In this document: in pieces, positions 32,909-55,357 of the stretch
Layout of the letters: every line of letters begins with the position of its first letter
How positions within the stretch are numbered: position 1 is the first letter of the stretch
Assembly: GCA_963823335.1 (NCBI GenBank)
Contig: CAWGLD010000006.1
Span: 34,559-98,558 of the forward strand
DNA: 64,000 bases
Origin: an uncultured delta proteobacterium
GTDB taxonomy: Bacteria; Desulfobacterota; Desulfobacteria; Desulfobacterales; B30-G6
Direction of reading: 5' to 3'
Program-made: the position numbers and the translations under genes
The notes under the pieces: generated by a model
Database searches by the model: none
Told to the model about the DNA's origin: nothing
What the model saw: the letters and a program-made list of their open reading frames with translations, nothing else

Positions 32909-32919
32909 GCAATAATTTT

Positions 32920-38766: not shown

Positions 38767-38838
38767 TGCATCAATGGAACAAATGAAACCATGTCCGGGA
38801 ACATCTGCCGTGTTTCCGGAAGTTGAAATGGACGAAAT

Positions 38839-39594
38839 ATGCAAATAGTCGACCCCAACAATCCCATACCTAAATATCTTCAGATCAGTATTTGGCTCAA
38901 GGAAGCGATCCAGATCGGCAGATATCCTTTGGGAGAGAAAATTCCTTCCGAAGTCGAACTGTCACGCATGTGCCAGGTCAACCGCAACACCCTGAGACAG
39001 GCTATTGCCGAATTATCGAAGAATGGCCTTCTAACCAAGAAAAAAGGCAAGGGAACCTTTGTAACCGCATCGAAACCCACCGCGCTCAGGCATCAGCTCA
39101 ATCGGATATCCAGTTTCAGCAAAGAGCTTTCTGCGGCGGGCATTCAGGAGAACACCTGCCTGCTCGGCAAGGGTATCGAGAAACCGTCTGAACGTACAGC
39201 AAAGGCACTTACCCTCGGGCCCGACACCGATGTAATCGCCATTCGGCGTCTGAGGACCGGGGACGATCTGCCTCTCATTTATGAGGAAACGTATCTTCCG
39301 GTCGATCTGTACGACGGTATTTTAAAAATGGATCTGACCGGATCCCTGTATGAGATATTCACGACTTCGTTCAACACCGTGCTGGCCCGTTGCGAGCAGA
39401 CCATTACGGCCGTCAACCTGAACGGCGAGATTGCGCATTCGCTGAAATTGAAGAAAAACGCTGCTGCGCTATACATGGAAAGCGTTACCTATAACGACCA
39501 CAATATGCCGGTTGAATTTCTGTGCGGCTATTTCAGGGGTGATAAATACGCATTTGCTGTCGAGCTCGGTCGATACCATTTAACAGAACAATAA
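38839..39594 (+). CDS. GntR-family transcriptional regulator, HutC/FarR subfamily (UTRA effector domain)
   Basis: 251 aa. The wHTH region reads PKYLQISIWLKEAIQIGRYPLGEKIPSEVELSRMCQVNRNTLRQAIAEL. C-terminal UTRA-like domain. Confidence 0.85.
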   Translation: MQIVDPNNPIPKYLQISIWLKEAIQIGRYPLGEKIPSEVELSRMCQVNRNTLRQAIAELSKNGLLTKKKGKGTFVTASKPTALRHQLNRISSFSKELSAAGIQENTCLLGKGIEKPSERTAKALTLGPDTDVIAIRRLRTGDDLPLIYEETYLPVDLYDGILKMDLTGSLYEIFTTSFNTVLARCEQTITAVNLNGEIAHSLKLKKNAAALYMESVTYNDHNMPVEFLCGYFRGDKYAFAVELGRYHLTEQ

Positions 39595-39701
39595 ATGTGT
39601 TATACAAATTTATTTGACGCGACTGCGTCGCTTATAGAACGAACGGATGAATCAAGTTTTAACGAGACATCGATATCAATTAGAAAGTTAAAGCAGTTTT
39701 A

Positions 39702-39729
39702 CTAGAAGCCATTTTGAGATAGCTTCTAA
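39702..39729. repeat. 28-bp mini-copy or footprint of the MITE (terminal repeat tips only)
   Basis: CTAGAAGCCAT+TTTGAGATAGCTTCTAA equals the left 11 nt and the right 17 nt of the 148-bp element. Confidence 0.6.
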
Positions 39730-39748
39730 AACCGCCAAGGAGGCAAAC

Positions 39749-40948
39749 ATGCAAGAAAGAAATCTGTTAGAAAAATTAGTCGACGTCAGCCCCGGAATGG
39801 AGATCTGGTGGGATTCATCACCGGTCATTTATAACAACTGGTGCAAGAAATTGCTCGACAAGGCCGATGTTGCCGATCGAGGGCTTCTGCAGGCCCAGTT
39901 TGACCGGATGTATAATCCCTCCAGTCCCGAGACACAGCTTTTCAGGGGTGTAACCACCAACCCGCCCCTCTCTCTCCAGGCAATTCAGGATGATGTTCCC
40001 CTGTGGCAAAAAAAGGCCCAGGAAATCATCACCGCCAATCCAGGCATCGACACGGAGTCGCTTTTCTGGAAACTCTACCTTTCCGTTGTCAAACTGGGTT
40101 CGGATCTGTATCTGCCCCTGTTTGAAAAGTCTGGATATACCGAGGGCTTTCTTTCAGGTCAGACAGATCCCCGCAGTGCGTTTGACAAAGATGCCATGAT
40201 TAAGCAAGCTCTCGATATCGCCAAAATAAATCCCAACGTCATGATCAAGGTGCCGGGAACCAAAGAAGGCTATGAGGTCATCGAATTTCTGACATCCAAA
40301 GGTATTGCCACCAACAACACCCTGACCTTTGTACTGCCCCAACTGGTTGATTGTGCCGAGTCGGTTAAGCGCGGTCTTGAAACGGCCAAAAAGAACAATG
40401 TGGATCTTTCCAAATGGCGCTCAGTGATTACGCACATGGAATCGAGATACGGTGATCTTGGGGGTCTTAGGGATTTTGCAGCCGAGAAAAATATCGAACT
40501 TTCGGACATGGACGTCAGATGGGCGGAGCTGGCCATTTTCAAAAAAGCTTATAAGTACCTGATCGACAACAAAATGTCGAGCAAGATGCTCTCCTGTTCC
40601 CTGCGGATCGGTCCCGTGGTGGACGGTGTCACACGCATTCCGCATCTGGAGGAAAAAGCAGGCTGTGCAACGGTCGTAACCTGCCCGCCGACCTTTATCG
40701 ACCAGATCATCAACTTTGCAGAACAGGATAAAATTGTCTTCGAGAAAGACCGTATCCTCAAAGACATTCCCAAGGATGTCATGGACAAGCTGATGCAGGT
40801 ACCCTATTTTGAAAAAGCCTATGCAGTGGACGGCTATTCCCGGGATGAGTACAATACCCACCCCGCACTTCAGCGGACGGCGGCACAATTTTCCAAAGCC
40901 ACCGAAGAAATGGTGGCGTTTGCAGACAATTGTCTGAATAACGCTTAA
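39749..40948 (+). CDS. transaldolase-family protein (long form)
   Basis: 399 aa. TTNP near the N-terminus and VMIKVPGT.EG (Schiff-base Lys context), then ATNNTL.F. Confidence 0.7.
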   Translation: MQERNLLEKLVDVSPGMEIWWDSSPVIYNNWCKKLLDKADVADRGLLQAQFDRMYNPSSPETQLFRGVTTNPPLSLQAIQDDVPLWQKKAQEIITANPGIDTESLFWKLYLSVVKLGSDLYLPLFEKSGYTEGFLSGQTDPRSAFDKDAMIKQALDIAKINPNVMIKVPGTKEGYEVIEFLTSKGIATNNTLTFVLPQLVDCAESVKRGLETAKKNNVDLSKWRSVITHMESRYGDLGGLRDFAAEKNIELSDMDVRWAELAIFKKAYKYLIDNKMSSKMLSCSLRIGPVVDGVTRIPHLEEKAGCATVVTCPPTFIDQIINFAEQDKIVFEKDRILKDIPKDVMDKLMQVPYFEKAYAVDGYSRDEYNTHPALQRTAAQFSKATEEMVAFADNCLNNA

Positions 40949-40978
40949 TATTTGTTCCCTTACGTAAAGGAGGACCTT

Positions 40979-42091
40979 ATGAAAGTAGGTGTTTTAAAAG
41001 AAATCAAAACAAAGGAGAACCGCGTCGCCATGACACCTGCGGGTGTCGAACAGATGGTTGTCCACGGACATACGGTCATGGTGGAAACCACCGCCGGTGA
41101 AGGCTCAGGCTTTTCCGACAAGACCTATGAAAAAGCCGGTGCCAGGATCGAACCTTCGGCCCAGGCGATTTACGAAAAAAATGAAATGGTCATGAAAGTA
41201 AAAGAACCCTTACCGGTGGAATTCCCTCTGATCCGTAAAGGTCAGGTGCTGTTTACCTACTTTCATTTTGCTGCCTCAGAGGTGTTGACACGTGCCATCA
41301 TCGACACCGGCTCCATTGCCGTTGCCTATGAAACCGTCGAAAAAGCCAACGGTTCCCTGCCCCTGCTGACGCCCATGAGCGAAGTGGCCGGGCGGATGGC
41401 GATTCATGAAGGTGCCAAGTACCTTGAAAAGACCTACAATGGCAAAGGCATTCTGCTGGGCGGGGTTCCGGGAACGGAACCGGGAACCGTCATCGTCATT
41501 GGCGGCGGCATTGTCGGTACCAATGCAGCTAAAATAGCCTGTGGCATGGGGGCCAAGGTATATCTTCTGGACACCAATCTGGAACGGCTCCGGTATCTTT
41601 CGGATGTCATGCCAAAAAATTGTTTCCCCCTCATGTCCAACCCGGCTATCCTGCGCAAACTGCTCAAGGAGGCCGATCTGGTCGTAGGCGCCGTCTTGAT
41701 TCCAGGCGCCGTGGCCCCCAAGCTGATCACCCGTGAGATGTTGGGGTACATGAAAAAAGGATCCGTGATTGTGGATGTGGCCATCGATCAGGGCGGGTGT
41801 TTTGAAACGTCAAAAGCCACCACCCATGACGATCCCATCTATGAGGTGGACGGTATTATTCACTATTGTGTGGCCAATATGCCTGGAGCGGTTTCCATGA
41901 CCTCAACGGTCGCTCTGACAAACGCCACCCTGCCCTATGCCCTTCAACTCGCAAACAAGGGCTACAGGATTGCAGCTCTGGAAAACCCCGAACTCGCCAA
42001 AGGTCTAAATATAGTTGAAGGAAAAGTGACCTACAAAGGCGTAGCTGATGCATTTAACCTGGCATTCGAACCATTCGAATCCGTTTTATAG
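40979..42091 (+). CDS. ald: alanine dehydrogenase
   Basis: [32 protein letters not shown] Rossmann motif, [14 protein letters not shown] 40979 follows GGAGG. Confidence 0.9.
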
Positions 42092-42141
42092 GACATTTAT
42101 TTTGCAACGCACCCAATCAATCATATGAAAGGACACTAAAA

Positions 42142-43230
42142 ATGAAAAAAGTACTAAAAGACTGGATCGTACCCTGGCTCTATACGGCTAGAGAATATAA
42201 TGTCGGCATTCTGGACAAGGCATGGGCCAATCCGGACCACGCCCGCCTCATGCTCAATGAAAACCCCATTCAACCCTCGGAAAAGGTGGTGGAGGCAGTG
42301 GCGCAAGCCATCCGCAATGGCAACCGCTATCCTGACAGCTTTCTGCGCTTGAGGACCAAAATCGGCAAGATGTATGGCCTGGGACCGGACAACGTGGCAC
42401 TTTGCAATGGTTCTTCTGAGACCATCGATGCCATGATGCGTGTTTTCCTGCAGCCTGGCGACGAGTTCATGCTGTCCACGCCGACCTTCGAGCTTTTTCC
42501 ACCGCGTGCAGAGCTGTGCAATGCCAAGGTTGTTTCAATCCCGGTTCGGGAAGAAGACCTGCAGTATGATGTCGATGCGATGCTGGCCGCCATCAACGAC
42601 AGGACCAAACTGATCCTGATCATCAACCCTAACAACCCCACCGGCGTCTTCATCGATGATGCCGATCTGGACCGATTCTGTGAAACGGGTGTCCCCCTCT
42701 GTGTGGACGAGGCTTACCTGGACTACAACCCTGACAGACCTTCGAAAGCGTATCTGATCAAGAAATATCCCCAGGTATTCCTGTCGGTAACTTTTTCCAA
42801 GGCCTATGGGTTTGCAGGCATTCGTTTCGGGTTCGTACTGGGAACCGAAGAGATGATCGCCGCCTTCAACCGCATGTTCCTGCCCTGGAACGTGAGCCTG
42901 ATGTCCGCTGCCGCTGCTGAAGCCATCCTCGACAATCCAGACGAGGTCAAGCAAAAGGTCGCGCACAACAACAAGTGGATGGCTGTTTTTTCCGAAGAAC
43001 TCAAGAAGCTGGGGCTCAAACCTTTTCCGGCCAATGGTAATTACATGCTTATCGACGGTACCATGACGGGCAAGAGCACCGAAGAAATCCTCAAAGCCGC
43101 TCTTGACGAAAAAATATATCTCAAGAAAATAGGTGAAATCCACGGGAAGACCGGCTATTTCAGGGTAACCCCTGGAACGGATGCAGAAAACGAGAAGTTC
43201 ATAAAATTTATCCGCGCTTATTTCGCATAA
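42142..43230 (+). CDS. class I/II pyridoxal-phosphate aminotransferase, HisC/CobD-like
   Basis: 362 aa. LNENP, NPNNPTG, TFSKAYGFAGIRFGF (PLP Lys). Confidence 0.75.
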   Translation: MKKVLKDWIVPWLYTAREYNVGILDKAWANPDHARLMLNENPIQPSEKVVEAVAQAIRNGNRYPDSFLRLRTKIGKMYGLGPDNVALCNGSSETIDAMMRVFLQPGDEFMLSTPTFELFPPRAELCNAKVVSIPVREEDLQYDVDAMLAAINDRTKLILIINPNNPTGVFIDDADLDRFCETGVPLCVDEAYLDYNPDRPSKAYLIKKYPQVFLSVTFSKAYGFAGIRFGFVLGTEEMIAAFNRMFLPWNVSLMSAAAAEAILDNPDEVKQKVAHNNKWMAVFSEELKKLGLKPFPANGNYMLIDGTMTGKSTEEILKAALDEKIYLKKIGEIHGKTGYFRVTPGTDAENEKFIKFIRAYFA

Positions 43231-43267: not shown

Positions 43268-43355
43268 GGACATTCCATGAGAAGGCAGTTGTTTCCTCTT
43301 TCATGGAATGATCCGGTTTCTTGTACCTGAGCGGCACACATGATTGGGTGTGCCG
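43268..43355 (+). terminator. two strong hairpins between the aminotransferase genes
   Basis: GGAcATTCCATGA...TCATGGAATgaTCC (43268..43314) and CGGCACAC-atgattgg-GTGTGCCG (43332..43355). U-rich but not canonical tails. Could be a terminator or a leader structure. Confidence 0.4.
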
Positions 43356-43487: not shown

Positions 43488-44333
43488 ATGGATATCTATT
43501 ACATCGACGGGCAGTATGTAGATGAGGACAAATGTGTACTGTCCGTGAAAGACATTATCGTTCTGAGGGGTTTTGGTGTATTCGATTTCTTGATTACCTA
43601 TAACAAACGACCCTTCTATTTAAAGGAACACGTTCAACGCCTGGAAACATCAGCCCAAAAAATTGGACTCAAGATAAGACACGCCAACGACGAGATCTGT
43701 CGTATTGTCGAAGAAACAATCCGGCGTAACACCCACCACGATGAATCGAACATCCGTATCGTTTACACCGGCGGCATCAGCTCGGATGGCGTCACACCAG
43801 AGGGAAACGGATACCTGATCGTCATGGTGACACCCAAACACCAACTGCCTGAATGGTGGTATTCCGACGGTGCAAAATTGATTACCGCGGAGATCGAGCG
43901 TTTTATCCCCGGCGCCAAAAGCACCAACTATCTGACAGCGGTATGGGCTCTGGAGCGGGCACACGCCATGGGTGCCATCGAGTCCATCTATGTGGATCGC
44001 AACAACCGACTTCTTGAAGGCACCACCACGAATTTTTTCTGTTTCAAGGAGAACAAACTTATCACACCCAAACTGGATATATTGCCGGGTATTACGCGCA
44101 GTGTACTGGTGGACCTGGTCGAGGGACACTTTGATCTGGAAATCAGGGAAATCCATAGGGCTGAACTCTCCTCCATGGAAGAGGTTTTCATTTCTGCCTC
44201 TAATAAAGAGATCGTACCGATTATAGAAGTGGACGACATCAAAATCGGAAACGGTCGGCCCGGTCAGAGAACACAAAAAGTGATGCAGCTTTTCAAAGAC
44301 TACACCACTGCGTACGGACAGGGAAAGGTGTGA
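43488..44333 (+). CDS. class IV aminotransferase (D-amino-acid / branched-chain aminotransferase fold)
   Basis: 281 aa. RGFGVFD, GAKSTNYL, E.TT.NFF, PGITR. Confidence 0.8.
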   Translation: MDIYYIDGQYVDEDKCVLSVKDIIVLRGFGVFDFLITYNKRPFYLKEHVQRLETSAQKIGLKIRHANDEICRIVEETIRRNTHHDESNIRIVYTGGISSDGVTPEGNGYLIVMVTPKHQLPEWWYSDGAKLITAEIERFIPGAKSTNYLTAVWALERAHAMGAIESIYVDRNNRLLEGTTTNFFCFKENKLITPKLDILPGITRSVLVDLVEGHFDLEIREIHRAELSSMEEVFISASNKEIVPIIEVDDIKIGNGRPGQRTQKVMQLFKDYTTAYGQGKV

Positions 44334-44334
44334 C

Positions 44335-45522
44335 ATGGAAGCCATGCCCGGCCCAGCCGGTGACATTCCTCCCCTGACCTGGGCGGAAATCGATCTTGGT
44401 GCGCTGGCACATAATTATCGTGAATTGCGACGTGTCACCAAATCGTCTGCTGTCATGATGGCTGTTGTAAAAGCGGATGGATATGGCCATGGTGCACCCC
44501 AGGTGGCCCGGGTGGCCCTTGAAAATGGTGCCGAACTTCTCGCAGTGGCACGTATGGGTGAGGCTATCAGACTTCGGGAAGCCGGTATATCGGCACCCAT
44601 ACTTCTTTTTGGTCACAGCTTGCCCGCGTATGTAGATATTCTGGCAGTCAGTGACATTCGGGCGGCCCTTAACTCACTGGATGGTGCCCGTTCCATTTCA
44701 GCGCAGGCCGTACGCCGCAAAACAAGCATCAAGGCCCACATCAAGGTTGACACCGGCATGGGGCGTCTGGGTCTTCTGGCGGATGAAATTGCAATCCAGA
44801 CAGATGCCGGCGAACAGTTCAACCGTGCCGTAAATGACATTCTGTCTATCTCCGCCCTTCCCGGCATCGAAGTGGAGGGTATTTTTACGCATTTTGCCAC
44901 TGCAGACAGTCGGGACAAGCGTTATGCAACGACCCAGTTGTCGCGCTTTACCAGACTGCTGGAAACGCTGGAAACGCATTCTTTACGGGTCCGGTATCGC
45001 CACGCCGCCAACAGTGCCGCCATCATTGAAATGCCCGAGTCCCACCTGGATCTGGTGAGACCCGGAATTGCCCAATATGGACTCTGGCCGTCGGATGAAG
45101 TGGACAAGCAACGAATCCATCTCAAGCCGGTAATGTCCATTAAATCCAGGGTAATTCATGTAAAGGATGTTGGTGCTGATTTTGCCGTCAGCTACGGCAG
45201 CACCCATGTTACATCCCATCCCACACGGATTGCCACCATTCCCATCGGTTACGCCGACGGATACAACCGGGTCCTTTCCTCCAATGGCTATATGCTGGTA
45301 AAGGGTGTGCGAGCTCCTATCATCGGCAGGGTTTGTATGGATCTGACCATGATCGATGTGGGTCATGTGCCGGATGTTTCTCTCGAAGATGAAGTCGTTA
45401 TACTGGGATCGCAAGGAGACGAAACCATCTCAGCAGATGAGATTGCAAAAAAGGCAGGCACCATTAATTACGAAATCGTATCGTCGCTGACATCCAGGGT
45501 ACCCAGGGTATATGTTCGGTGA
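44335..45522 (+). CDS. alr: alanine racemase
   Basis: 395 aa. AVVKADGYGHG (PLP Lys), FTHFA.AD, and GYADGY with R.G.VCMD. Confidence 0.85.
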   Translation: MEAMPGPAGDIPPLTWAEIDLGALAHNYRELRRVTKSSAVMMAVVKADGYGHGAPQVARVALENGAELLAVARMGEAIRLREAGISAPILLFGHSLPAYVDILAVSDIRAALNSLDGARSISAQAVRRKTSIKAHIKVDTGMGRLGLLADEIAIQTDAGEQFNRAVNDILSISALPGIEVEGIFTHFATADSRDKRYATTQLSRFTRLLETLETHSLRVRYRHAANSAAIIEMPESHLDLVRPGIAQYGLWPSDEVDKQRIHLKPVMSIKSRVIHVKDVGADFAVSYGSTHVTSHPTRIATIPIGYADGYNRVLSSNGYMLVKGVRAPIIGRVCMDLTMIDVGHVPDVSLEDEVVILGSQGDETISADEIAKKAGTINYEIVSSLTSRVPRVYVR

Positions 45523-45626
45523 GTTTGTTGAGTTCTTTGCGTTTGTTGGGTGTCCCTTAAAAATTGTTTTAACGCTGGTAAACGAACGAACATCGAACAT
45601 CGAACGTCCAACATCGAATTTTGAAT

Positions 45627-46868
45627 ATGAATCGCCCACCTGAAAATACAATAGACTGGCAGACAGGCACATACCACAATCCTCGGGCCGGAGAAACACA
45701 GGCTGACGTCATCATATGCTCTGACTGGGCACCTATTCGCGGATTCAAGGATATCATTCTCCAGAATCCGGAAGCTGTTTATGGTGATCTGCTTCCGGAG
45801 TTGCGAGACGGCGATATGCGGATCGTCAACCTGGAATGCCCCCTAGTGGATCAAGGGGAGCCGGTTTCCAAAAGTGGGGCTGTCCTGAAGGGTCTTTCCG
45901 GGCACATTACAGGACTCACCAGCATTCCCTTCGAGGTGGCCACCCTGGGCAATAATCACGTTTTTGATTACGGGACCGAAGCCTTTGTCCAAACCAGGGA
46001 TCTGCTGTATCAAAACAATATCAAGACCGTTGGTGCCGGCATGTCCATAGAGGAAGCGGCAGTGCCGTTGATTGTCACATCCAGGGGTGTTGCCATCGCT
46101 ATTGTCAATTTCAGTGAAGGTGAGGATCTGACCGCTGCAGGAGAAAACCCGGGCGTTCATGGCTGGGAAATCGATCGGGTGGTCGCTCAGGTTCAGGAGC
46201 TGCAGAGTCAGGTCAATGCAACCATCGTTGTCTGCCATGGTGGTGTCGAGTACATCCCCTATCCCCCACCCTACCTGGCTGCCGCATTTCATCGGATTGC
46301 CGATGCGGGTGCAGACCTGATCATCGGTCACCACCCCCACGTACCCCAAGGTGTTGACATACGAAACCATGTGCCCATCTGCTACAGCCTGGGCAATTTT
46401 GTTTTCTTTCAACACACCCGGCTGCAGTTCAGAAAAATAGGTTATTTTGTTAAAGCCGGAATTGCCGAAAATGGCCTCGCTCGAATGCGTATCGTACCTT
46501 ACGAAATCTTGCCCACCCGACTTCAATTGTTGAAAGAGGAAAAGTATCGCTGGATAATGAAAAAACTCAAAACCATATCTGAGCCTTTGAACGATTTATC
46601 CCGGATCATCCAGGCCTGGAACGGATTTATAAAACACTATGGTATCAACGGTTTTCAGAATGAGGTTGCCAACATTATGGAAACCCTTGCCCGGGAACCT
46701 GCCAAAGGAGCCGCCATGTTCCGAAACCGGATCACGACCATGCAGCACAACCAGCACCTGGTTGACACCATGACCCGTATCATGGACGGAACCATTGACC
46801 AGGCACCGGCATGGGCTCTCGACACTGTGTCCGAATGGCTCACACGGCAGATATCAGACAAACAGTAG
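45627..46868 (+). CDS. CapA-family (PGA_cap) metallophosphoesterase-fold protein without an N-terminal TM anchor
   Basis: NLE.P, LGNNHVFDYG, V.CHGG.EY...P, GHHPHV.QG. The track start at 45621 is TTG and the ATG lies at 45627. TAG stop. Confidence 0.7.
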   Translation: MNRPPENTIDWQTGTYHNPRAGETQADVIICSDWAPIRGFKDIILQNPEAVYGDLLPELRDGDMRIVNLECPLVDQGEPVSKSGAVLKGLSGHITGLTSIPFEVATLGNNHVFDYGTEAFVQTRDLLYQNNIKTVGAGMSIEEAAVPLIVTSRGVAIAIVNFSEGEDLTAAGENPGVHGWEIDRVVAQVQELQSQVNATIVVCHGGVEYIPYPPPYLAAAFHRIADAGADLIIGHHPHVPQGVDIRNHVPICYSLGNFVFFQHTRLQFRKIGYFVKAGIAENGLARMRIVPYEILPTRLQLLKEEKYRWIMKKLKTISEPLNDLSRIIQAWNGFIKHYGINGFQNEVANIMETLAREPAKGAAMFRNRITTMQHNQHLVDTMTRIMDGTIDQAPAWALDTVSEWLTRQISDKQ

Positions 46869-46877
46869 GAAAATTGA

Positions 46878-47813
46878 TTGACCATGCCCCTTTCTGAATC
46901 CAAAAAAATCAGCCGGTTTTATGAGAAAAAGCAGGTCACAGTTCTCATTACCGACTCCGGTCTGGGGGGTATCTCCATTTGTGCAGAAATCGCCAATGAA
47001 TTAAGGCGACGTCATATATTCGAAAATGTTTCACTGGTCTATTTCAACGCCTGGCCGGAGAAAGACCGGGGGTACAATCGGCTCAGCAACACAGCCGAAA
47101 GAATCCAGGTGTTTGATGGCGCTCTGGAAGGGATGATGAAATTTAAGCCGGATTTCATCATGATCGCCTGCAATACCCTGTCTGTTCTCTATCATCGTAC
47201 ACAATTCAGTCACCATGTACGAATCCCGGTTGTTGACATTGTCGGGTTTGGCGTGGAGATGATGGCCGATGCTCTGGAGAAATCATCACAGGCCCAGGCA
47301 GTTATCCTGGGAACCGTAACCACCATCGACAGCCGGTTGCATCACGATCAGCTGATTCAAAGAGGGATTCAACCCGCACAAATCGTTTCGCAGCCGTGCG
47401 ATCAGCTTGCAACACAGATCGAAATGGGACCCGACAGCTCTATTGTATCTGAAATGATTGATACGTTCATGCGCCAGGCAGCCCGAAATATCGATCCTGG
47501 TTCAAGTAAAATATATGCTGCCCTTTGCTGTACCCATTTTGGCTATTGTCAGGAATTGATTCAAGCCAGCCTGGCTGATTTCGCAAATAAACCGGTGACA
47601 ATTCTAAACCCGAACCATAAAATGGCCGCCTGTCTGTCGGCCAACGGCCGCAAGATTCGTTTTTCAGACACCAAAATTCAAATACAGGTGGTTTCAAAGA
47701 TCACTTGGGAAGAAAGGAAGATCAATTCCATTTCGAGTTTCATTCAGTCGCTTTCTGCTGAAACAGCGCATGCTTTAATGAACTATGCGCAAATTCCAAA
47801 CCTGTTTAGCTGA
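46878..47813 (+). CDS. MurI-like Asp/Glu racemase
   Basis: 311 aa. ITDSGLGG, IACNTLS (first catalytic Cys), LCCTHF (second catalytic Cys). Confidence 0.7.
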   Translation: MTMPLSESKKISRFYEKKQVTVLITDSGLGGISICAEIANELRRRHIFENVSLVYFNAWPEKDRGYNRLSNTAERIQVFDGALEGMMKFKPDFIMIACNTLSVLYHRTQFSHHVRIPVVDIVGFGVEMMADALEKSSQAQAVILGTVTTIDSRLHHDQLIQRGIQPAQIVSQPCDQLATQIEMGPDSSIVSEMIDTFMRQAARNIDPGSSKIYAALCCTHFGYCQELIQASLADFANKPVTILNPNHKMAACLSANGRKIRFSDTKIQIQVVSKITWEERKINSISSFIQSLSAETAHALMNYAQIPNLFS

Positions 47814-47880
47814 AAAGAGTTTGCCTGCCCGATCTGCATACAATCCGAATATGACCCAATCAAATCTGGAGGAAGTGAGC

Positions 47881-48873
47881 ATGAAAAGAGTATTAATCAT
47901 TACCGGCCCCGGCGGCGATGCCCAGGGGTGGGGAAATCTTGAAGTAACCCAAACACTCAGCCAGGCACTCAATTCCGATGGCAAGTCGTCTGAAATAGTA
48001 TTTGTCAATACCATGGATGGCTTTTTAAAAGCCATTGACAGCCATACCTATGATATTGTCTGGAGTGCCCTTTACTATATCTCCGAAAAGGAAGATATCA
48101 TCGGGTTGAACATTGATGACGGTGCCTGGCTGGCGGACGAACTCGATCGGCGTCAGATACCCTATATCGGTCCCAGTGCCCAGACCATGAAAGATCTCAT
48201 CAATAAAACAGCAACCCACCGCATTCTCAGTTCAAAAAACATCTCCGTTCCCGAACATCATCAGGTGGATATGGGAGAATCTGTACCCGACATTCGATTT
48301 CCGGCTTTTGTCAAGCCCAGTTGTGAATCGCGATCTGTTGGGATCAGTGATGAGAGCGTTGTCCAGAACACGACAGAGCTTCAAAAACGGATTGCATTCA
48401 TCCACAGGCAATTCGAACAGCCGGCCCTGATCGAGGATTACCTTCCGGGAGAAGAATACACAGTTCTGATGATCGGCAATGGAAAAGATCAGATATTCAT
48501 TCCCGGTGTCGTGACGGTAAAGGGGGGCAACAACGGAAAATTTCCTATCCTGCGAAGTGACATGCGGGGAGTCGGCATTACCAAAATTGGCATACCCGAA
48601 CATAGTGCCGAGGCAGCCAATGCCTTGTGCCTAGAAGCGGTTGAAGCTTTGAACTGTTTGGATCATGTTCGTGTGGATATGCGTTTCGACACCCATTCAA
48701 AATTGAAAATCATCGAAGTCAACGGTATCCCGGGACTCAAGCCGATCAAAAGCTGGAGCCCCCAGATGTTTACACTGTACAATAAATCACCTCAAGGTCC
48801 TCTTGAGGATTATCGACTCCTGCTGCATAAAATTGTGGATTCCGGCCTCACACGCTACAATATATCGCTTTGA
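47881..48873 (+). CDS. ATP-grasp ligase, D-alanine--D-alanine ligase-like
   Basis: MKRVLIITG... after a GGAGG RBS. The central FPAFVKPS.E.RSVGIS, EDYLPG.EYTV and R.DMR......L..IEVNG.PGL are typical of the Ddl/ATP-grasp fold. Confidence 0.7.
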   Translation: MKRVLIITGPGGDAQGWGNLEVTQTLSQALNSDGKSSEIVFVNTMDGFLKAIDSHTYDIVWSALYYISEKEDIIGLNIDDGAWLADELDRRQIPYIGPSAQTMKDLINKTATHRILSSKNISVPEHHQVDMGESVPDIRFPAFVKPSCESRSVGISDESVVQNTTELQKRIAFIHRQFEQPALIEDYLPGEEYTVLMIGNGKDQIFIPGVVTVKGGNNGKFPILRSDMRGVGITKIGIPEHSAEAANALCLEAVEALNCLDHVRVDMRFDTHSKLKIIEVNGIPGLKPIKSWSPQMFTLYNKSPQGPLEDYRLLLHKIVDSGLTRYNISL

Positions 48874-48967
48874 TTATACCCTTTGATGTGATAAGGCTTT
48901 GTGCGGTTTTTCTGATCTGGCCCAGAGGACCAGGTTTTTAATGACGGAATAAATAAAGGTGAATAAC

Positions 48968-49732
48968 ATGAAAATTCTTGTATGTGTCAAACATGTGCCG
49001 GATACTGCGGCAAACATCAAGGTCGTGGGAGATAACGGATTTGACGAGTCGGTAAAATTCGTCATGAATCCCTATGACGAATATGCGGTGGAAGAGGCCG
49101 TCAGAACCGTTCAGAAGAACGGCGGTGAAGTAGTGGTGGTATCTGTGGGAAAGCCAAGTGCCGCCAACACCCTGCGAAGCGCGCTGGCGGTGGGCGCCGA
49201 CAGGGGCATCCTTGTCAAGACAGATGCCCAGTTTCTGGACAGCGAAACGACCGCCCGGGCCCTCAAGGCCGTTATTGATCAGGATGGTGCTCCGGATCTT
49301 ATTTTTACCGGAAAACAGTCCGTAGACAGCGAAGGCATGCAGACCCATTATCGGCTGGCTGGAAAACTGGGCCTCCCTGTTGCATCGGAGGTGTCGGCTT
49401 TCAGTATGGAAAACGATAAAGCCATTGTAGAATGTGAAATTGGCGGTGGCAACCGAGAAGTGATTGAAATGACCATGCCTTGCGTCATCGGTGCTACAAA
49501 GGGTTTGAACGAGCCCCGCTACCCCAAACTGCCCGATATTCTCAAAGCCAAAAAGAAACCTCTTGTTGAAATGGAATTGTCCGATTTGGGCATTGCCATG
49601 TCATCGATTTCATCCACGACAAAGCTGACACCGGTAAAAGAACGTGGTGCAGCGACGATGCTCCAAGGCTCGGTCGGGGATATGGTTGCAGACCTGGTCA
49701 ACCGGCTTGAAAACGAGGTTAAGGTTCTTTAA
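48968..49732 (+). CDS. etfB: electron transfer flavoprotein, beta subunit
   Basis: MKILVCVKHVPDTA, NPYDEYAVEEA, and VVVVSVG together with D.I..GKQS.D. Confidence 0.9.
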   Translation: MKILVCVKHVPDTAANIKVVGDNGFDESVKFVMNPYDEYAVEEAVRTVQKNGGEVVVVSVGKPSAANTLRSALAVGADRGILVKTDAQFLDSETTARALKAVIDQDGAPDLIFTGKQSVDSEGMQTHYRLAGKLGLPVASEVSAFSMENDKAIVECEIGGGNREVIEMTMPCVIGATKGLNEPRYPKLPDILKAKKKPLVEMELSDLGIAMSSISSTTKLTPVKERGAATMLQGSVGDMVADLVNRLENEVKVL

Positions 49733-49913
49733 TAAATTCGGTGCACGAATTTATTCCGTGCCGGGCCCTTCGGACCCGGGTATCTGCAATATACTTGGGT
49801 TTTATTGATAACTACATATTTTTTGATCATCTCCCAAAGAGTTGATCAAAATGAAGGGTTCAAGGATTCCAGGGGTCCAGGGTTCGAGTGAGATGAAGTA
49901 GGGTGTCAGCTAA

Positions 49914-50107
49914 ATGCTTAAGAATTATAAAGAGTTAAACGATTGGAAAAAATCGTATAAACTTTGTTTGGATAAACGATGATATCTGGCGATTTGGGTT
50001 ATGTGGAGAAAGAAAGGCTTGAGGAATTAAGAATGAAGATCGGAGATGTAGAGAGAATGCTAAAAGTGATGATCACATCCCTGGAAAACAAACACTTGAA
50101 TCCTTGA
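49914..50107 (+). pseudogene. internally deleted four-helix-bundle protein gene (23S rRNA intervening-sequence protein family) in the etfB-etfA spacer
   Basis: N-terminal piece MLKNYKELNDWKKSYKLCLD, then a stop. A C-terminal piece lies in another frame: GDLGYVEKERLEELRMKIGDVERMLKVMITSLENKHLNP*. Flanked by GGGTTCAAGG-type repeats. Confidence 0.5.
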
Positions 50108-50180
50108 ATCCTGGACTCCTTGAACCCTTTCTCCCAACTTATTGGGAGAAGAACCATATTTTTAACGCACGAGGGAGAGT

Positions 50181-51116
50181 ATGAGCATGTCCAATATTGG
50201 TGTATTGATAGAAATGGATGGGCAAGAGATAAAGGCACCCAATTACGGTGTCTTGACGGCAGCCTGCGCGGGCGGGAATGTCGTAGCGCTGGTTTTTACC
50301 GATGACGGTCAGGCCTGTAAAGGCGAGTTGGAACGATTTGGCGCAGAGAAGATTGTGACAATGTCTGCGGAGAGTCCGGTTCAAAAGGCAAACCTGCTGG
50401 CAGCCGCGATCAAAGAATATGATCTGCGTGTGCTGATGGGACTTTCCAGCGCACGGGGTCGCGATCTTCTGAGCCGATGCGCCTGCATACTTGATGCACC
50501 GCTGGCTCTGGATGCCATACAAGCAAACCTGTCGGACGGAACGGTAGTAAAAAGCCATTTTTCAGGGAAAACAACGGCAGCCATAAAACTCACAGGCGAA
50601 ACGCTGCTGATCGGCCTGCGTCCCAATGTGATCGAGCCCATTGAAAATCCCGTGTCCGCTGAACGTATCTCCTTCAGCGCAGAAGCAGGCAACAGCGATG
50701 GTTTTAAAGTCCTTGAAGTCAAAAAGGGGGGTTCAGGTGCCATTGATCTGACCGAAGCTGAAATTATCATTACCGGTGGACGCCCCATGGATTCGGCTGA
50801 GAACTTCAAGATCCTTTATGCTTGTGCCAAGGAGCTGGGCGCTGCCGTGGGGGCCTCTCGTGCGGCTGTGGACGCAGGTTTCGCACCACACAGCATGCAG
50901 GTGGGCCAGACCGGCAAGACGGTTTCGCCCAAACTTTATATTGGCTGTGGCCTGTCCGGTTCTGTTCAGCATTTTGCTGGAATGAAAACTTCCCGGGTGA
51001 TTGTGGGTATCAACACGGACAAAGATGCACCCATTTTCGGTAAGTGCGACTATGGCATCGTAGGGGATCTGTTCGAAGTCGTTCCGGCATTGACGGAAGC
51101 ACTAAAAGCTCGTTAG
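50181..51116 (+). CDS. etfA: electron transfer flavoprotein, alpha subunit
   Basis: 311 aa. C-terminal FAD domain GASRAAVDAG..P...QVGQTGK.V.P.LYI..G.SG..QH..G. TAG stop. Confidence 0.9.
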   Translation: MSMSNIGVLIEMDGQEIKAPNYGVLTAACAGGNVVALVFTDDGQACKGELERFGAEKIVTMSAESPVQKANLLAAAIKEYDLRVLMGLSSARGRDLLSRCACILDAPLALDAIQANLSDGTVVKSHFSGKTTAAIKLTGETLLIGLRPNVIEPIENPVSAERISFSAEAGNSDGFKVLEVKKGGSGAIDLTEAEIIITGGRPMDSAENFKILYACAKELGAAVGASRAAVDAGFAPHSMQVGQTGKTVSPKLYIGCGLSGSVQHFAGMKTSRVIVGINTDKDAPIFGKCDYGIVGDLFEVVPALTEALKAR

Positions 51117-51120
51117 ACGA

Positions 51121-51268
51121 TTAGAAGCTATCTCAAAAAAGTTTTTTAGCCCAATTTCTGTGTTGGTCCCTTGCTTCAACTCCTCGGAATACTTGAGTAT
51201 GCCTGCGGGTTGAAGTTCGGGCCCGCCTTGAACTTGAGCCAAAACCCTTTTTTTGAGATGGCTTCTAG
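51121..51268. mobile_element. 148-bp MITE-like element, copy 2 (inverted relative to copy 1)
   Basis: TTAGAAGCTATCTCAAAAAA ... TTTTTTGAGATGGCTTCTAG. Begins 5 nt after the etfA stop. Confidence 0.8.
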
Positions 51269-51320
51269 ACTGTTAGACCCTATGCGGCCTATTAGTCTAA
51301 CAGCCTAACAGCCTAAATAC

Positions 51321-52601
51321 CTACCGTTTTTCAGGTATGAGTCCCTTCTCTACCACCATTCTGGCCCAGTCGTCAAAGGCACTCAAATTCGCCGTGGTAT
51401 GTGCATCCGTATGATAGTCACAACTGGCTACCCGCTGAATGACATCAAATGCCTGCCTGTCTTCCGGGAGATACAGTGGTTTCAATTCTGACGAATCCCT
51501 GCCGGATTCCAGGTATTCACGATGTGACTGGCAATCGCGCTGGAATGCATCCTCACTGAAGAAATTGAGATTGTCCAGTACACCGAAACAGTGACGGGCC
51601 TTGTGGACACCGAAATCGCAAAGTATTTTTCGCCCGCGTTCCCCATCGGAAAGGGCCTGTTTGTTCGGGTTCTTTTCACCCGTGCTTCCACCGGACTGAA
51701 CGGTGGGAAGCCCGGTCACCCACATGTTCAAACGCGCCACGGCCACATTTAAAAGATTCATGGCATCATTTGAATAATCGAGATCGCCATCGGGTCTTGT
51801 GGTGCAGGGCATGCCGCCAAACATGCACAACATTCCGGGGTTGACTGTCTGGGTTACGGCCAGCATGAACAGGACCTCGGCATGGGTGATCACGATGCAG
51901 GCTTCGGGTGTCTGAGGGGCTGTTCTTCCTGCCAGCGGCATGGTTGTCAAGCGTAGATTGTTTCCAGACTTGGCGCTCTTTATGAGCGCATCCATCATGT
52001 TGTCCATGCAGATCAGAGGGGACTTGACACCGCAGATGGAATCGTGCCAGTCTTCCCGACCGGAAAACCATTTTACAGCGGCGTCCTCTTCCATGTAGGC
52101 GCTGCAGGTAACCTTGATGCAGCCGCTCAGCCGGTCCATGATCTGGTTACATTTGAGCGGATCACCTTTTTGGACCTTGACCGGCTGGCTTAGAAATCGA
52201 ACGACATCGAGGTTTTCCCCAATAACCCCGATGAGATGTTCCAGTTCTTCGTAGGATGCCGGCATGGGGTAACGATCTGCTTCCCGGTATAAAAATGGTG
52301 GAATACCGCCGATCCCTAGCGTGTTTTGCCCCTCGTCGCCTTGAAACGATTTTGCCGCCGAGGACAGGCATTGATCCACCAATTCCGGAAGTAGATAGAT
52401 ACGACCGGCAGAAGAATCGTAGCCGGCAAGACCGGTGCCTTCCAAAATAGAAATGACATCCTGGTTTTTTGTTTCTATGCCGACTTCGGCCAGGACTGAT
52501 TTGGTGGTGTCATGAATTCTCTCATAGGATTCTTTTTCTTTCAGAAGTGCGTCTTGATAAACTTCGGGAGCCTTTTCTATCAATGCGTTGATATGGGTCA
52601 T
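51321..52601 (-). CDS. MttB-superfamily methyltransferase, non-pyrrolysine type
   Basis: About 426 aa from ATG 52601 (GGAGA RBS, 14 nt after the upstream stop). Colinear with the MttB at 58280..59797. It has Ser at the aligned Pyl column (LPTVQSGG-S-TGEK). TAG stop. Confidence 0.75.
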   Translation of the reverse strand: MTHINALIEKAPEVYQDALLKEKESYERIHDTTKSVLAEVGIETKNQDVISILEGTGLAGYDSSAGRIYLLPELVDQCLSSAAKSFQGDEGQNTLGIGGIPPFLYREADRYPMPASYEELEHLIGVIGENLDVVRFLSQPVKVQKGDPLKCNQIMDRLSGCIKVTCSAYMEEDAAVKWFSGREDWHDSICGVKSPLICMDNMMDALIKSAKSGNNLRLTTMPLAGRTAPQTPEACIVITHAEVLFMLAVTQTVNPGMLCMFGGMPCTTRPDGDLDYSNDAMNLLNVAVARLNMWVTGLPTVQSGGSTGEKNPNKQALSDGERGRKILCDFGVHKARHCFGVLDNLNFFSEDAFQRDCQSHREYLESGRDSSELKPLYLPEDRQAFDVIQRVASCDYHTDAHTTANLSAFDDWARMVVEKGLIPEKR

Positions 52602-52617
52602 GACATTTTCTCCAGTC

Positions 52618-55041
52618 TTAAGCGAGTATCTTCTTCCGTTCAGGATCATACAATTGACGGTTGAGTTCCAGTTGGATCGGGAAGACTGTTTTATAAGACT
52701 CGATTTCATATCCATCTGTGACCCCGCTCATGTCTGCGGGAAGATATCCATAACAGATATTTTTTCCGATGGTGTGACCGTACCCTGAACTGGAGGTTAC
52801 ACCCACCACGGTGCCGTTGTGCAGAATAGGCGCGCTTCCCTGGAGCATTAGCGGCTTTTCCGCATGGATGGTGAAAGTGCACAGCTTCCAAGGGGCACCT
52901 TCGGTCTTGATTCTTGCCAGGGCCTCTTTGCCGATAAAATCATTCTTGTCAAGCGCAACACAAAAACCCAGACCGACATCAAATGGGGTGTATTCGGGAG
53001 TGAGCTCGGAACCCCAGTCGGCGTATCCTTTTTCCAGATGCAGGGAGGCGATTGTTCGGTATCCGGCGTTTTTAATTCCGAGATCCTGACCGGCCTCCCA
53101 TAGTGTATCGTATACATGGCCAGCAAATTCTGTGGGGATATACAGTTCGTAACCGAGTTCCCCCACATAGGTCACCCGAAAGGAAATGACCGGTGCATAC
53201 CCTACGCTGAAAGATTTGCAGGTCCCGAACGGAAAACTCTTGTTGGTCAGGTCTTCTTGGGTTGTTTTTTTCAACAGTTCTCTCGATTTGGGCCCGATGA
53301 CATTGATGACAGCATAGGCCGACGTAACTTCCCGGAATGAAACGGTGCCGTCAGTGGGCATGTGGTTTTCGATCCACCACGATGTGCGGAGACCGAAGGC
53401 CGTGCCGACAACGATCATAAATTTATCTGTTGTCAAGCGACCGACGGTCATGTCACATTCGATGGTGCCGCGTCCATTGCACATCTGCGTGTAGATCACC
53501 TTCCCCACAGGCTGGTCGATCTGATTGGCACAAAGCCGGTTCAGAAACGGAAGGGCGCCCGGACCTTGCACCTCGAATTTGCAGAAAGAGCTCTGGTCGA
53601 TTAGCACCACATTTTCGCGAGCGTTTTGATGCTCGGCAGCCACATATCCAAACCAGTTCGGGGTTTCGAAAGTAACATCATCTTGCGGCTCAATACCTTC
53701 CGGCGCAAACCAGTTGGCCCTTTCCCACCCGTATTTTGCCCCGTAAACGGCACCTTTATCTTTGAGCTGGTAATAGAGGGGGCTACGTCTCACCCCTCTT
53801 GCGGAGTCATGCTCTTCGTGAGGCCAATGAATGGTATAATGTTTGCCGTATAGTTCCCTTGTTCTTTCCACATTGTACCTTCGGCTATGGTGATACGGAC
53901 CAAATCTTCGGATATCCAGCGGCCAGATATCGAGACTCGGCTCTCCCTCGATAATCCATTCAGCCATCATCCGCCCGGCGCCACCACCGGCAGCTATTCC
54001 GAACGCGTTGAATCCCGCAGCTACGAAACAGTTATCGAGTTCCGGGGCGGGCCCCATAATGGCATCACCGTCCGGGGTAAATGCCTCCGGCCCATTGACC
54101 AGACGGGCAATACCGGCTTCTTCGAGGCACGGCGTTCGCCGCATGGCCGGATCTGATAGCGATTGGAAATGGTCATAATCGGGTTCCAGCAACTGAGAAA
54201 TGAAATCATTGCCCACGCCATTGATGGCCCACGGTATTCCGTTGCGTTCATAGCCGCCCATGACCAGACCACCCACTTCGTCTTTATAATAGAGAAGACT
54301 GTCTTTGTCGCGGATGGTGGGAAGGTTTGGTGGCATCCCCTGGATCTCATCCGTGACTAGAAACTGGTGCTGGAAAGGAACCAGGGGTATGTTGACGCCC
54401 AGCATTTCCCCTACCTGGTATCCCCACATGCCCGTACAGTTGACGACAATATCGCATTGAATATCACCTTTGTCGGTTTTTACCGTGGTAACCCGTCTCT
54501 TGTCGAATTCAAAGCCGGTCACCAGCGTGTGCTCATATATGCTCGCACCTCGATTCCTGGCACCTTTGGCCATGGCCTGGGTGATCCCCGCAGGATCCGC
54601 CTGGCCATCTGTGGGCATAAAAGCTGCGCCAATAATATCATCTATAGTAATGATCGGGCAAAGATCGTAAGCCTCCTTGGGCGTGATAATGTTCATCTCC
54701 AGTCCGAAACTGCGTGCCGTGGTAGCCCCCTTTTTCAGTTCGTACATACGCTCTTTTGTGCTGGCCAGATGAAGACAACCACTTTTTTTCCAGCCCGTGG
54801 TCAATCCTGTTTCAGCCTCGAGCTGTTCGTAGAGACTAACGCTGTACTGCAGCATCCGGGTAATGTTTCGTTCACTGCGCAGTTGACCCACAAGCCCGGC
54901 AGCATGCCAGGTGGAACCACTGGTGAGCTCTCCCTTTTCGAGTATCACCACATCGTTCCATCCCATCTTGGTTAGATGGTAGGCTGTGCTGCAACCAATA
55001 ATGCCACCGCCAATAATTACAACCTGTGCACGATCTTGCAT
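52618..55041 (-). CDS. dimethylglycine/sarcosine dehydrogenase-family flavoprotein (DAO domain fused to a GcvT-like folate-binding domain)
   Basis: 807 aa. VVIIGGGIIGCSTAYHL dinucleotide fold. TSGSTWHAAG (covalent-FAD His context of DMGDH/SARDH). C-terminal aminomethyltransferase fold. Confidence 0.85.
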   Translation of the reverse strand: MQDRAQVVIIGGGIIGCSTAYHLTKMGWNDVVILEKGELTSGSTWHAAGLVGQLRSERNITRMLQYSVSLYEQLEAETGLTTGWKKSGCLHLASTKERMYELKKGATTARSFGLEMNIITPKEAYDLCPIITIDDIIGAAFMPTDGQADPAGITQAMAKGARNRGASIYEHTLVTGFEFDKRRVTTVKTDKGDIQCDIVVNCTGMWGYQVGEMLGVNIPLVPFQHQFLVTDEIQGMPPNLPTIRDKDSLLYYKDEVGGLVMGGYERNGIPWAINGVGNDFISQLLEPDYDHFQSLSDPAMRRTPCLEEAGIARLVNGPEAFTPDGDAIMGPAPELDNCFVAAGFNAFGIAAGGGAGRMMAEWIIEGEPSLDIWPLDIRRFGPYHHSRRYNVERTRELYGKHYTIHWPHEEHDSARGVRRSPLYYQLKDKGAVYGAKYGWERANWFAPEGIEPQDDVTFETPNWFGYVAAEHQNARENVVLIDQSSFCKFEVQGPGALPFLNRLCANQIDQPVGKVIYTQMCNGRGTIECDMTVGRLTTDKFMIVVGTAFGLRTSWWIENHMPTDGTVSFREVTSAYAVINVIGPKSRELLKKTTQEDLTNKSFPFGTCKSFSVGYAPVISFRVTYVGELGYELYIPTEFAGHVYDTLWEAGQDLGIKNAGYRTIASLHLEKGYADWGSELTPEYTPFDVGLGFCVALDKNDFIGKEALARIKTEGAPWKLCTFTIHAEKPLMLQGSAPILHNGTVVGVTSSSGYGHTIGKNICYGYLPADMSGVTDGYEIESYKTVFPIQLELNRQLYDPERKKILA

Positions 55042-55210
55042 GAATCCTCTCCTTATCGGATCGTTTCACGATCCAATCTGACGCGGCCTGGCCGCTTTTT
55101 TGAAATTAGCAGACATTGTATTTTTTGTGTTTTGTTTTTCGTATTTTGTGTTTGTGTTTGTGGTTGGAATTAGGCCAAATTCTTTTCGCAATTAGACTGT
55201 AAACCACTAA

Positions 55211-55356
55211 CAGCTTATTGCTTAAAGCTTATAGCCACCCGCCAACCCTTGTGTGCTGTGATGCTATGATGCTTGGAAGCTGGGTTGCTGCTGTCCGCTC
55301 ATAGCCGTCAGCTACCCTCCAACCCTGGTATCCCCCTCCACCCCTCGAACCCTTTC
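55211..55356. repeat. family A repeat copy upstream of the DMGDH-like gene
   Basis: AAGCTTATAGCC...GCTGCTGTCCGCTCATAGCCGTCAGCTACCCTCCAACCC...CCTCGAACCCTTTC. Shares blocks with 19.9, 31.6 and 50.1 kb. Confidence 0.6.
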
Positions 55357-55357
55357 T

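Follow-up and report, generated by a model that had tools for sequence, protein, structure and literature searches.

Neither the anthrax capsule nor natto poly-gamma-glutamate can be made without proteins of the CapA/PgsA family. The biochemical role of these proteins has remained elusive, since their native complex is unstable and bound to the membrane. Glutamate racemase and D-amino-acid aminotransferase are known suppliers of D-Glu for poly-gamma-glutamate, and the literature on this polymer predicts an unidentified synthetase with an ATP-grasp domain (PMC3815933). The lasso-peptide epimerase MslH acts on the C-terminal residue of a peptide, and its essential residues are known from mutagenesis (PMC10406935). 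The authors of the MslH work proposed that CapA proteins are peptide epimerases (PMC8179263). Here we describe a 64-kb stretch of DNA from an uncultured delta proteobacterium of the Desulfobacterales (contig CAWGLD010000006.1, positions 34,559 to 98,558; the whole stretch analysed is called the window below) in which a soluble CapA-like gene lies in a five-gene cassette (positions 43488–48873 of the window, + strand). The other four genes encode a class IV aminotransferase, an alanine racemase (Alr), a MurI-like racemase and a Ddl-fold ATP-grasp ligase.

We read this locus as an accessory, horizontally spread and purely cytoplasmic cassette that forms one transcription unit, makes or interconverts a D-amino-acid peptide, and is not a housekeeping peptidoglycan set. 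We give this reading a probability of roughly 0.4. The initial annotation could name no characterised pathway of such composition, and our search of the literature on this gene combination likewise found none.

Conservation and spread of the cassette

We identified relatives of the ligase in 186 species in a scan of one genome per species (~185,000), which returned 80 loci; a metagenome scan provided 80 further loci. The carriers are mostly Desulfobacterales and Syntrophales, with additional copies in Spirochaetota/Leptospirales and in one Lentisphaerae metagenome-assembled genome (MAG), and they include the cultured Desulfosarcina alkanivorans and Desulfocicer vacuolatum. Across phyla, the ligase family is patchy at 57–62% identity.

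Ligase gene clusters typically include a racemase-like gene (97% of the 68 loci with enough flank for counting) and a CapA-like gene (94%) beside the ligase. A class IV transaminase accompanies the ligase at 68% of these loci and an Alr at 59%. At 56%, the ligase is directly followed by a gene of the FGase amidohydrolase family (Pfam accession PF05013), whose founding activity is the hydrolysis of N-acyl-L-glutamate. No FGase-like gene is present in the entire 64-kb window, and searches of the PDB with a single sequence and with a family profile found no relative of the FGase-like family. Because the arrangement recurs at well over 100 independent loci, it is far from chance. The initial annotation had made conservation of the five genes as a unit a check of its proposal, and our co-occurrence analysis found the linkage kept across genomes and even phyla. 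The composition of the unit is to be redrawn, with the CapA-like, racemase and ligase genes as a core trio, the transaminase and Alr as frequent but dispensable members, and the FGase-type amidohydrolase as a frequent sixth member that is found at about half of the loci and not in the window.

Identities of the partner proteins rise and fall with that of the ligase (rho 0.64–0.90). Spirochaetota copies of the transaminase, Alr, CapA-like protein and ligase are 56–69% identical to those of the window, and the racemase is 45% identical. Identities of 56–69% across phyla are high for housekeeping genes, and these values suggest that the cassette was transferred as a block. The window Alr and its counterpart in a Spirochaetota MAG share 64% identity; because of this and because the identity of Alr tracks that of the ligase (rho 0.90), we regard the window Alr as a module-linked paralogue. 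Gene order is permuted among lineages. Spirochaetota have the order LIG-FGase-AT4-ALR-PGA-RACE (the Leptospirales loci are permuted too), other lineages have RACE-LIG-PGA, and one clade, at ~50% ligase identity, has the CapA-like gene convergent to the ligase but keeps the set together.

Among the flanks of the loci examined, we found no mur, dcw or fts genes, no exporters, no pgsB or pgsC, and no genes for RiPPs (peptides made on the ribosome and modified post-translationally). The flanking genes (TRAP transporter, acyl-CoA enzymes, B12 salvage, regulators) vary by lineage, and no one of them recurs consistently from lineage to lineage.

Three further arrangements were observed. The Desulfosarcina alkanivorans cassette contains neither Alr nor transaminase. 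Two Desulfobacteraceae MAGs each carry two cassettes, one with and one without Alr (L057 and L063 in OB14; L032 and L070 in BB40), which suggests diversified substrate specificity. In Desulfotignum, the gene directly after the ligase (L042:11014–11688, L080:11077–11649) has nicotinamidase/isochorismatase-type motifs, as read by eye; it occupies the FGase-like slot, and could be a functional replacement or a coincidence.

Enzymes encoded by the cassette

The ligase and the MurI-like racemase are clearly distinct from canonical Ddl and MurI, with sub-cut-off scores and replaced substrate-site elements. The ligase is predicted to be a divergent Ddl-fold ATP-grasp amide ligase, a paralogue rather than an orthologue of Ddl. 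It falls far below all Ddl and Van model cut-offs (NF002378, 80.5 bits against 243; TIGR01205, 65.3 against 245.65). The best 50 Foldseek matches to its AlphaFold2 (AF2) model (pLDDT 87) are all Ddl/Van ligases, aligned over the full length at 16–23% identity (TM 0.64–0.76). With these enzymes it shares the three-domain Ddl fold (TM 0.72–0.76) and the ATP/Mg and transition-state residues: profile alignments indicate that DdlB Lys144, Glu180, Glu187, Arg255, Asp257, Glu270, Asn272 and Gly276 are kept, and Ser281 is probably retained too.

The substrate-binding region, by contrast, differs from that of Ddl. The Ddl N-terminal domain (Pfam accession PF01820), which holds Glu15 and His63 of the D-Ala1 site, has no match in the ligase, and the GGxSxEhEVS motif is absent. 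Residues 1–78 cannot be aligned with E. coli DdlB and bear the family motif GPGGDAQGWG. In a residue mapping based on E. coli DdlB alone (the ten next-nearest representatives tested were all sub-threshold Ddl-like paralogues), an invariant Arg151 stands in for Ser150 of the D-Ala1 site and an invariant PILRSDMRGVG for the Lys215-Tyr216 omega loop. The family has three extra invariant arginines at its substrate sites, which suggests an acidic substrate.

The ligase family is small and distinct: an exhaustive search of 1.84 billion representative proteins identified only 40 members at E ≤ 1e-30, ~25 of them full-length, ranging from 57% down to 31% identity. The family comprises two subtypes, ESRS/KSWS (to which the window ligase belongs) and a sister ESES/KSRS. 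The sister subtype (ESESxG, KSRS; 31–45% identity; P0243–P0276) retains the QGWG N-terminal motif, and its three loci (L084–L086) contain neither the racemase-like nor the CapA-like partner. Beyond it, we observed many Ddl-like proteins at 124–199 bits against the Ddl cut-off of 243; this indicates a large uncharacterised space of Ddl paralogues between the ligase family and true Ddl. A search with E. coli DdlB over the window and 83 loci found the cassette ligases alone and no canonical ddl. We also considered PylC as an identity for the ligase, since a pyrrolysine-containing mttB lies nearby, and rejected it (TIGR03909, 31 bits against 248).

The MurI-like protein is predicted to be a two-cysteine racemase/epimerase of the Asp/Glu racemase superfamily and, like the ligase, a paralogue rather than an orthologue of its housekeeping relative. 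It scores 53.4 bits against a cut-off of 146.65 for TIGR00067, and its best PDB matches are glutamate racemases at a mere 37 bits. Across 67 family members, no catalytic position of MurI varies: TDSGLGG supplies the Asp-Ser, ACNT a Cys, and Glu-x-Gly and Cys-Thr-His are kept as well. In place of the MurI substrate loop LGDTxxxPYG, the family has an invariant FNAW...GY.

The class IV transaminase is a predicted non-canonical ‘group II’ D-amino-acid transaminase. It lies below each curated equivalog cut-off in NCBIfam for branched-chain aminotransferases (BCAT), D-amino-acid aminotransferases (DAAT) and aminodeoxychorismate lyases (ADCL). Its PDB neighbours are in part archaeal-type BCATs and in part the D-amino-acid transaminase of Haliscomenobacter hydrossis (7p7x/7p8o; 145 bits, about one third identical). 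The catalytic residue is Lys144, with Arg27 and Arg90 predicted to bind the carboxylate. The protein carries the group II signature defined previously (PMC8401098; PMC12429042), namely a first-shell Arg on the beta-X strand, Arg90, a short O-pocket loop that lacks the carboxylate trap of Bacillus, and the Lys. In the alignment with 7p8o, the segments LRGFG, NIRIV and GISSDGVTPEG are equal in length and Lys144 is matched. The two enzymes have the first-shell Arg (LRGxG), the second-shell Arg90 and Phe33 in common, and their O-pocket loops are equally long; they differ at Arg179 of the Haliscomenobacter enzyme, which is Thr in the cassette enzyme. In the Haliscomenobacter transaminase, Arg28 binds the substrate alpha-carboxylate (PMC8401098; PMC12429042); the enzyme shows strict D-selectivity, with D-Glu/2-oxoglutarate and D-Ala/pyruvate as its best substrates (PMC8401098). 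DtolTA, a characterised Desulfobacula toluolica transaminase, was considered as an orthologue and rejected: its active-site residues differ (Lys137, Tyr34, Lys91, Arg144), and its biochemistry is therefore not transferable.

The Alr matches its equivalog model well above the cut-off (TIGR00492, 379.9 bits against 168), has both domains, and carries the pyridoxal phosphate Lys in AVVKADGYGHG. Its gene is translationally coupled to that of the transaminase through a 1-nt gap.

The CapA-like protein is best read as a candidate peptide C-terminal epimerase of the MslH type, and not as a capsule protein. Its sole NCBIfam match is the MslH model (NF038314, 66.4 bits against a cut-off of 700). In a Foldseek search with its AF2 model (pLDDT 91.9), MslH ranks first (E 4e-20, TM 0.62), followed by 5′-nucleotidases (E 1e-10, TM 0.4). 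Like MslH (PDB 8gq9; PMC10406935), its only close structural match, the protein is soluble and has a calcineurin-like fold. MslH has two dyads, His88/Asp91 and His295/Asp11, and its metal ligands are Glu44, Asn87, His259 and His261. The positions aligned with MslH Glu44, Asn87, His88, Asp91, His259 and His295 are invariant in the CapA-like family. Asp35 (in DWAP) is invariant as well and is a proposed counterpart of MslH Asp11, in an N-terminal region outside the alignment. The two proteins nevertheless share only ~19% identity. The position of MslH His261 is Gly in the CapA-like family, within the canonical CapA HxGxEY motif that the cassette protein keeps, and an invariant Glu210 lies close by. 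The cassette protein also has a C-terminal helical domain with an invariant basic motif of its own. Its substrate cannot be a lasso precursor because the loci contain no lasso genes.

Proposed pathway and alternatives

Homology to characterised enzymes suggests a pathway of six steps. Alr would provide D-Ala, and the group II transaminase would move the D-amino group onto a 2-oxo acid; with 2-oxoglutarate, the likeliest acceptor, this would yield D-Glu. The MurI-like two-cysteine racemase would offer a second, direct route to the acidic D-amino acid. The Ddl-fold ligase would then couple two amino acids through an acyl-phosphate into a dipeptide or short peptide that contains the acidic D-amino acid, which is probably D-Glu, as residue patterns and analogy suggest. 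The soluble CapA/MslH-like metalloenzyme would work on the free C-terminal residue of this peptide, most likely epimerising it. Finally, an FGase-type (N-acyl-glutamate-type) amidohydrolase, which about half of the genomes encode next to the ligase but that of the window does not, may cleave a precursor or the product itself. The product probably stays inside the cell, since the cassette is never linked to an exporter, a membrane component or a polymerase.

Several independent, indirect lines argue that the cassette lies outside ordinary peptidoglycan synthesis. The initial annotation had placed it outside any mur/ddl cell-wall context, and we indeed found no mur or dcw genes nearby; its suggestion of two routes to D-Ala and D-Glu also fits, as Alr, the D-amino-acid transaminase and the MurI-like racemase look the part.

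Other observations weigh against the proposed pathway. First, the acidic D-amino-acid assignment stands on residue patterns and analogy. Second, transaminases and racemases are reversible, and the same genes could run catabolically. Third, a make-then-break cycle would account for an amidohydrolase beside a ligase no less well than net synthesis would. Fourth, the CapA-like protein lacks the MslH metal ligand His261 and may instead be a hydrolase. Fifth, the cassette of the window clade sits among catabolic genes (alanine dehydrogenase (AlaDH), an aminotransferase, electron-transfer flavoprotein (ETF), a dimethylglycine-dehydrogenase-like protein and MttB). Finally, about a quarter of the loci contain neither Alr nor transaminase, and in-cassette supply of D-Ala and D-Glu is therefore not essential.

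The principal alternative, possible if rather unlikely, is that the cassette salvages D-amino acids by ‘indirect racemisation’. The ligase would N-acylate a free D-amino acid (e.g. D-Glu) with another amino acid, the CapA/MslH-like or MurI-like enzyme would epimerise the C-terminal residue of the resulting dipeptide, and the FGase-type amidohydrolase would free the L-amino acid. In a parallel arm, the transaminase, Alr and, in this clade, AlaDH would deaminate D-amino acids anaerobically through a pyruvate/alanine shuttle. Synthesis and salvage use the same parts and differ in net direction, and the sequence data fit either. The carriers are sediment anaerobes, and their habitat is rich in peptidoglycan-derived D-amino acids, as salvage would have it. 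The dgcN pathway for D-Glu provides a precedent for derivatisation, epimerisation and hydrolysis (PMC12363236), the target of MslH is a C-terminal residue (PMC10406935), and a gene family founded on N-acyl-L-glutamate hydrolysis (PF05013) is joined to the ligase at 56% of loci. The window clade, moreover, has the cassette right behind AlaDH and an aminotransferase and ahead of amine-catabolic genes. However, the ligase route would be redundant, because the MurI-like racemase, or the transaminase together with Alr, can already convert D-Glu without ATP. No D-amino-acid or peptide transporter is consistently linked to the cassette, the hydrolase is missing from the window and from ~44% of loci, and AlaDH and the HisC-like gene belong to a separate operon that is found in one clade only.

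A more specific proposal is that the cassette is a soluble ATP-grasp counterpart of the poly-gamma-glutamate system, in which the ligase would build a D/L-glutamyl dipeptide or oligomer, the anchorless CapA would epimerise its terminus, and the FGase-like enzyme would trim it. We consider this improbable.

It is very unlikely that the locus represents ordinary peptidoglycan precursor supply, with the organism's own alr, murI and ddl clustered with a dat gene. Alr does pass the alanine racemase equivalog model, the ligase and racemase are Ddl-like and MurI-like in fold and catalytic residues, and public annotations name the ligase ‘D-alanine-D-alanine ligase’. Yet the ligase and racemase scores (80 against 243 and 53 against 147 bits), the missing Ddl N-terminal signature, and the replaced D-Ala1 and omega-loop residues all speak against this assignment, as do the restriction of the ligase family to 186 of ~185,000 species scattered across phyla, the presence of two copies in single MAGs, and the absence of Alr and transaminase from the D. 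alkanivorans cassette. The linkage is to a CapA-like gene and never to mur or fts genes, and NCBI names the D. alkanivorans ligase merely a ‘family protein’.

A classical poly-gamma-glutamate capsule (CapBCA/PgsBCA) or lasso-peptide/RiPP maturation is extremely unlikely: the CapA-like protein belongs to PF09587 and has MslH as its best structural match, and glutamate racemase and D-amino-acid aminotransferase go with poly-gamma-glutamate production in Bacillus (PMC3815933), but PgsB/CapB (of the Mur-ligase type), PgsC, PgsE and a membrane anchor are absent, the identity to MslH is ~19%, and none of ~150 loci has a precursor peptide, lasso cyclase, leader protease or RiPP recognition protein.

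Locus layout and neighbourhood

The features of the locus are collected in Table 1. All five same-strand genes of the initial annotation were found intact, along with the 1-nt and 9-nt gaps (aminotransferase–alr and capA–racemase) and, in the translations, the catalytic motifs AVVKADGYGHG, ACNTLS, CCTHF, GNNH and GHHPH. Profile searches with Pfam and NCBIfam agree with its family assignments, and both of its upstream hairpins, with AlaDH and the HisC-like gene beyond them, are present. Its remark that the CapA-like protein has no N-terminal anchor agrees with our hydropathy scan (Kyte-Doolittle, 19-mer windows), which found no membrane-anchor-like segment in any of the five proteins; the highest values (≤1.72) peak within enzyme folds, and none is N-terminal. 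The ligase almost certainly starts at the ATG at 47881 (MKRVLIITGPGG), as nearly all of its 120 closest homologues are 328–330 aa long. With this start, a 67-nt spacer takes the place of an overlap between the racemase and ligase genes.

Table 1. Positions of the cassette genes and of neighbouring features in the window
Feature	Position	Strand	Remarks
Alanine dehydrogenase (AlaDH)	40952–42091		upstream; above TIGR00518 cut-off
HisC-like aminotransferase	42142–43230		upstream; exactly at TIGR01141 cut-off
Intrinsic terminator hairpin	43271–43310	+	inverted repeat; 10-bp stem, 20-nt loop
Second hairpin	43332–43355		inverted repeat; 8-bp stem; not conserved in relatives
Class IV aminotransferase	43488–44333	+	PF01063, 157 bits
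Alanine racemase	44335–45522	+	PF01168, 225 bits; PF00842, 168 bits; TIGR00492
CapA-like (PGA_cap) protein	45621–46868	+	PF09587, 185 bits; database copy begins at 45627
Asp/Glu-racemase-like (MurI-like) protein	46878–47813	+	PF01177, weak (33 bits); TIGR00067 below cut-off
Ddl-fold ATP-grasp ligase	47881–48873	+	330 aa; PF07478 only, 67 bits; open frame reaches back to 47785
ETF beta and alpha	48959–49732, 50181–51116		downstream island
Non-Pyl MttB-superfamily protein	51321–52715	-	
Dimethylglycine/sarcosine-dehydrogenase-like FAD/GcvT fusion	52618–55041	-	
HdrD-like CCG/4Fe-4S protein	55358–57361	-	
DeoR regulator	57437–58249	-	
mttB, trimethylamine methyltransferase	58280–59797	-	~505 codons; single in-frame TAG at 58814–58816
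PYLIS_3 element (Rfam)	58714–58816	-	after mttB TAG; 55 bits against gathering score of 38

The cassette is predicted to be a separate transcription unit whose 5′ boundary is the terminator at 43271–43310. This hairpin is kept in three relatives (L004–L006), one of which, L006, has a compensatory change, and a T-run comes after it; we thus read it as the terminator of an upstream operon that runs from the transaldolase-like gene (TAL) through AlaDH to the HisC-like gene. The spacer upstream of the cassette is 257 nt long and holds both hairpins. It has no Rfam match to a regulatory RNA at E ≤ 1, and scans for promoter and terminator consensus sequences performed no better than on shuffled sequence. 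Only in the close clade (at least 66% ligase identity) is the cassette preceded by transketolase-like, GntR, transaldolase-like, AlaDH and HisC-like genes. AlaDH and the HisC-like gene do lie next to the cassette, as initially annotated, but we count them as neighbours and not as members because they belong to a separate, terminator-bounded operon that is found in this clade only. Together, AlaDH, Alr and the D-amino-acid transaminase would form a neat oxygen-independent cycle for D-amino-acid deamination.

The upstream block (36862–43230) is clade-specific. Besides AlaDH and the HisC-like gene, it holds a transketolase-like gene that is strongly divergent (234 bits, cut-off 575), a regulator of the GntR/UTRA type, and a divergent transaldolase-family gene of 399 aa (96 bits against 367). 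This combination may point to the breakdown of an aminated sugar or polyol phosphate by way of a pyruvate/alanine shuttle. Further upstream, a 3.2-kb stretch of low G+C content (0.41–0.43; 32900–36100) follows tRNA-Leu(GAG) (32823–32908) and contains small open reading frames only, among them, by appearance, a putative universal-stress-protein-like gene (34472–34918) and a putative small carbohydrate-binding-module-like gene (33903–34199). This stretch may have been inserted at the tRNA.

A methylated-amine catabolic island (48959–58249) directly follows the cassette downstream; it is syntenic in the closest relatives only (L004–L006, L008, L010 and L014). The mttB gene follows. Its in-frame TAG and the PYLIS_3 element imply that this Desulfobacterales-like genome probably decodes pyrrolysine; no pylBCD or pylS was seen among the annotated parts of the window.

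Significance and comparison with known systems

The linkage described here genetically locks a soluble CapA homologue to a soluble ligase and racemase, and thereby makes the peptide-epimerase idea for CapA testable in vitro. Should the cassette prove to be a counterpart of the poly-gamma-glutamate system, it would identify the predicted ATP-grasp synthetase (PMC3815933) and provide the first tractable soluble model for CapA/PgsA function. The cassette represents widespread, unannotated D-amino-acid metabolism in sulfate-reducing and syntrophic sediment bacteria, and sediment D-amino-acid turnover bears on carbon and nitrogen cycling. The label ‘D-alanine-D-alanine ligase’ on cassette ligases is probably wrong and inflates counts of cell-wall and D-amino-acid genes in metagenomic surveys.

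Like the van clusters (VanA/VanC, VanT racemase, VanX dipeptidase), the cassette brings a racemase together with a ligase and, at many loci, an amide hydrolase. The cassette differs from them in that it has no VanH, VanX, VanR or VanS and no mur context, and in that its ligase is paired with a CapA-like enzyme.

The Bacillus poly-gamma-glutamate system (PgsBCA/CapBCA, RacE/Glr, Dat, Alr, PgdS/PghP) has counterparts in the cassette for all gene classes except the polymerase: a CapA homologue, a glutamate-racemase-like protein, a D-amino-acid aminotransferase, an alanine racemase and an amidohydrolase. An Alr route to D-Glu is also part of poly-gamma-glutamate supply. In contrast to the Bacillus system, the amide ligase of the cassette is of the ATP-grasp type and not a Mur-ligase-type PgsB, PgsC and PgsE are absent, all components are soluble, and the carriers are Gram-negative anaerobes.

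Systems for indirect racemisation (DgcN/DgcA; N-succinyl-amino-acid racemase) N-derivatise an amino acid, epimerise it and hydrolyse the product, and the ligase, CapA-like protein and FGase-like enzyme could fill these three roles. None of the enzyme families is shared: where these systems use an acyl-CoA transferase the cassette has an ATP-grasp ligase, and where they use an enolase-superfamily racemase it has a calcineurin-like or two-cysteine racemase. Unlike these systems, the cassette additionally has a direct racemase.

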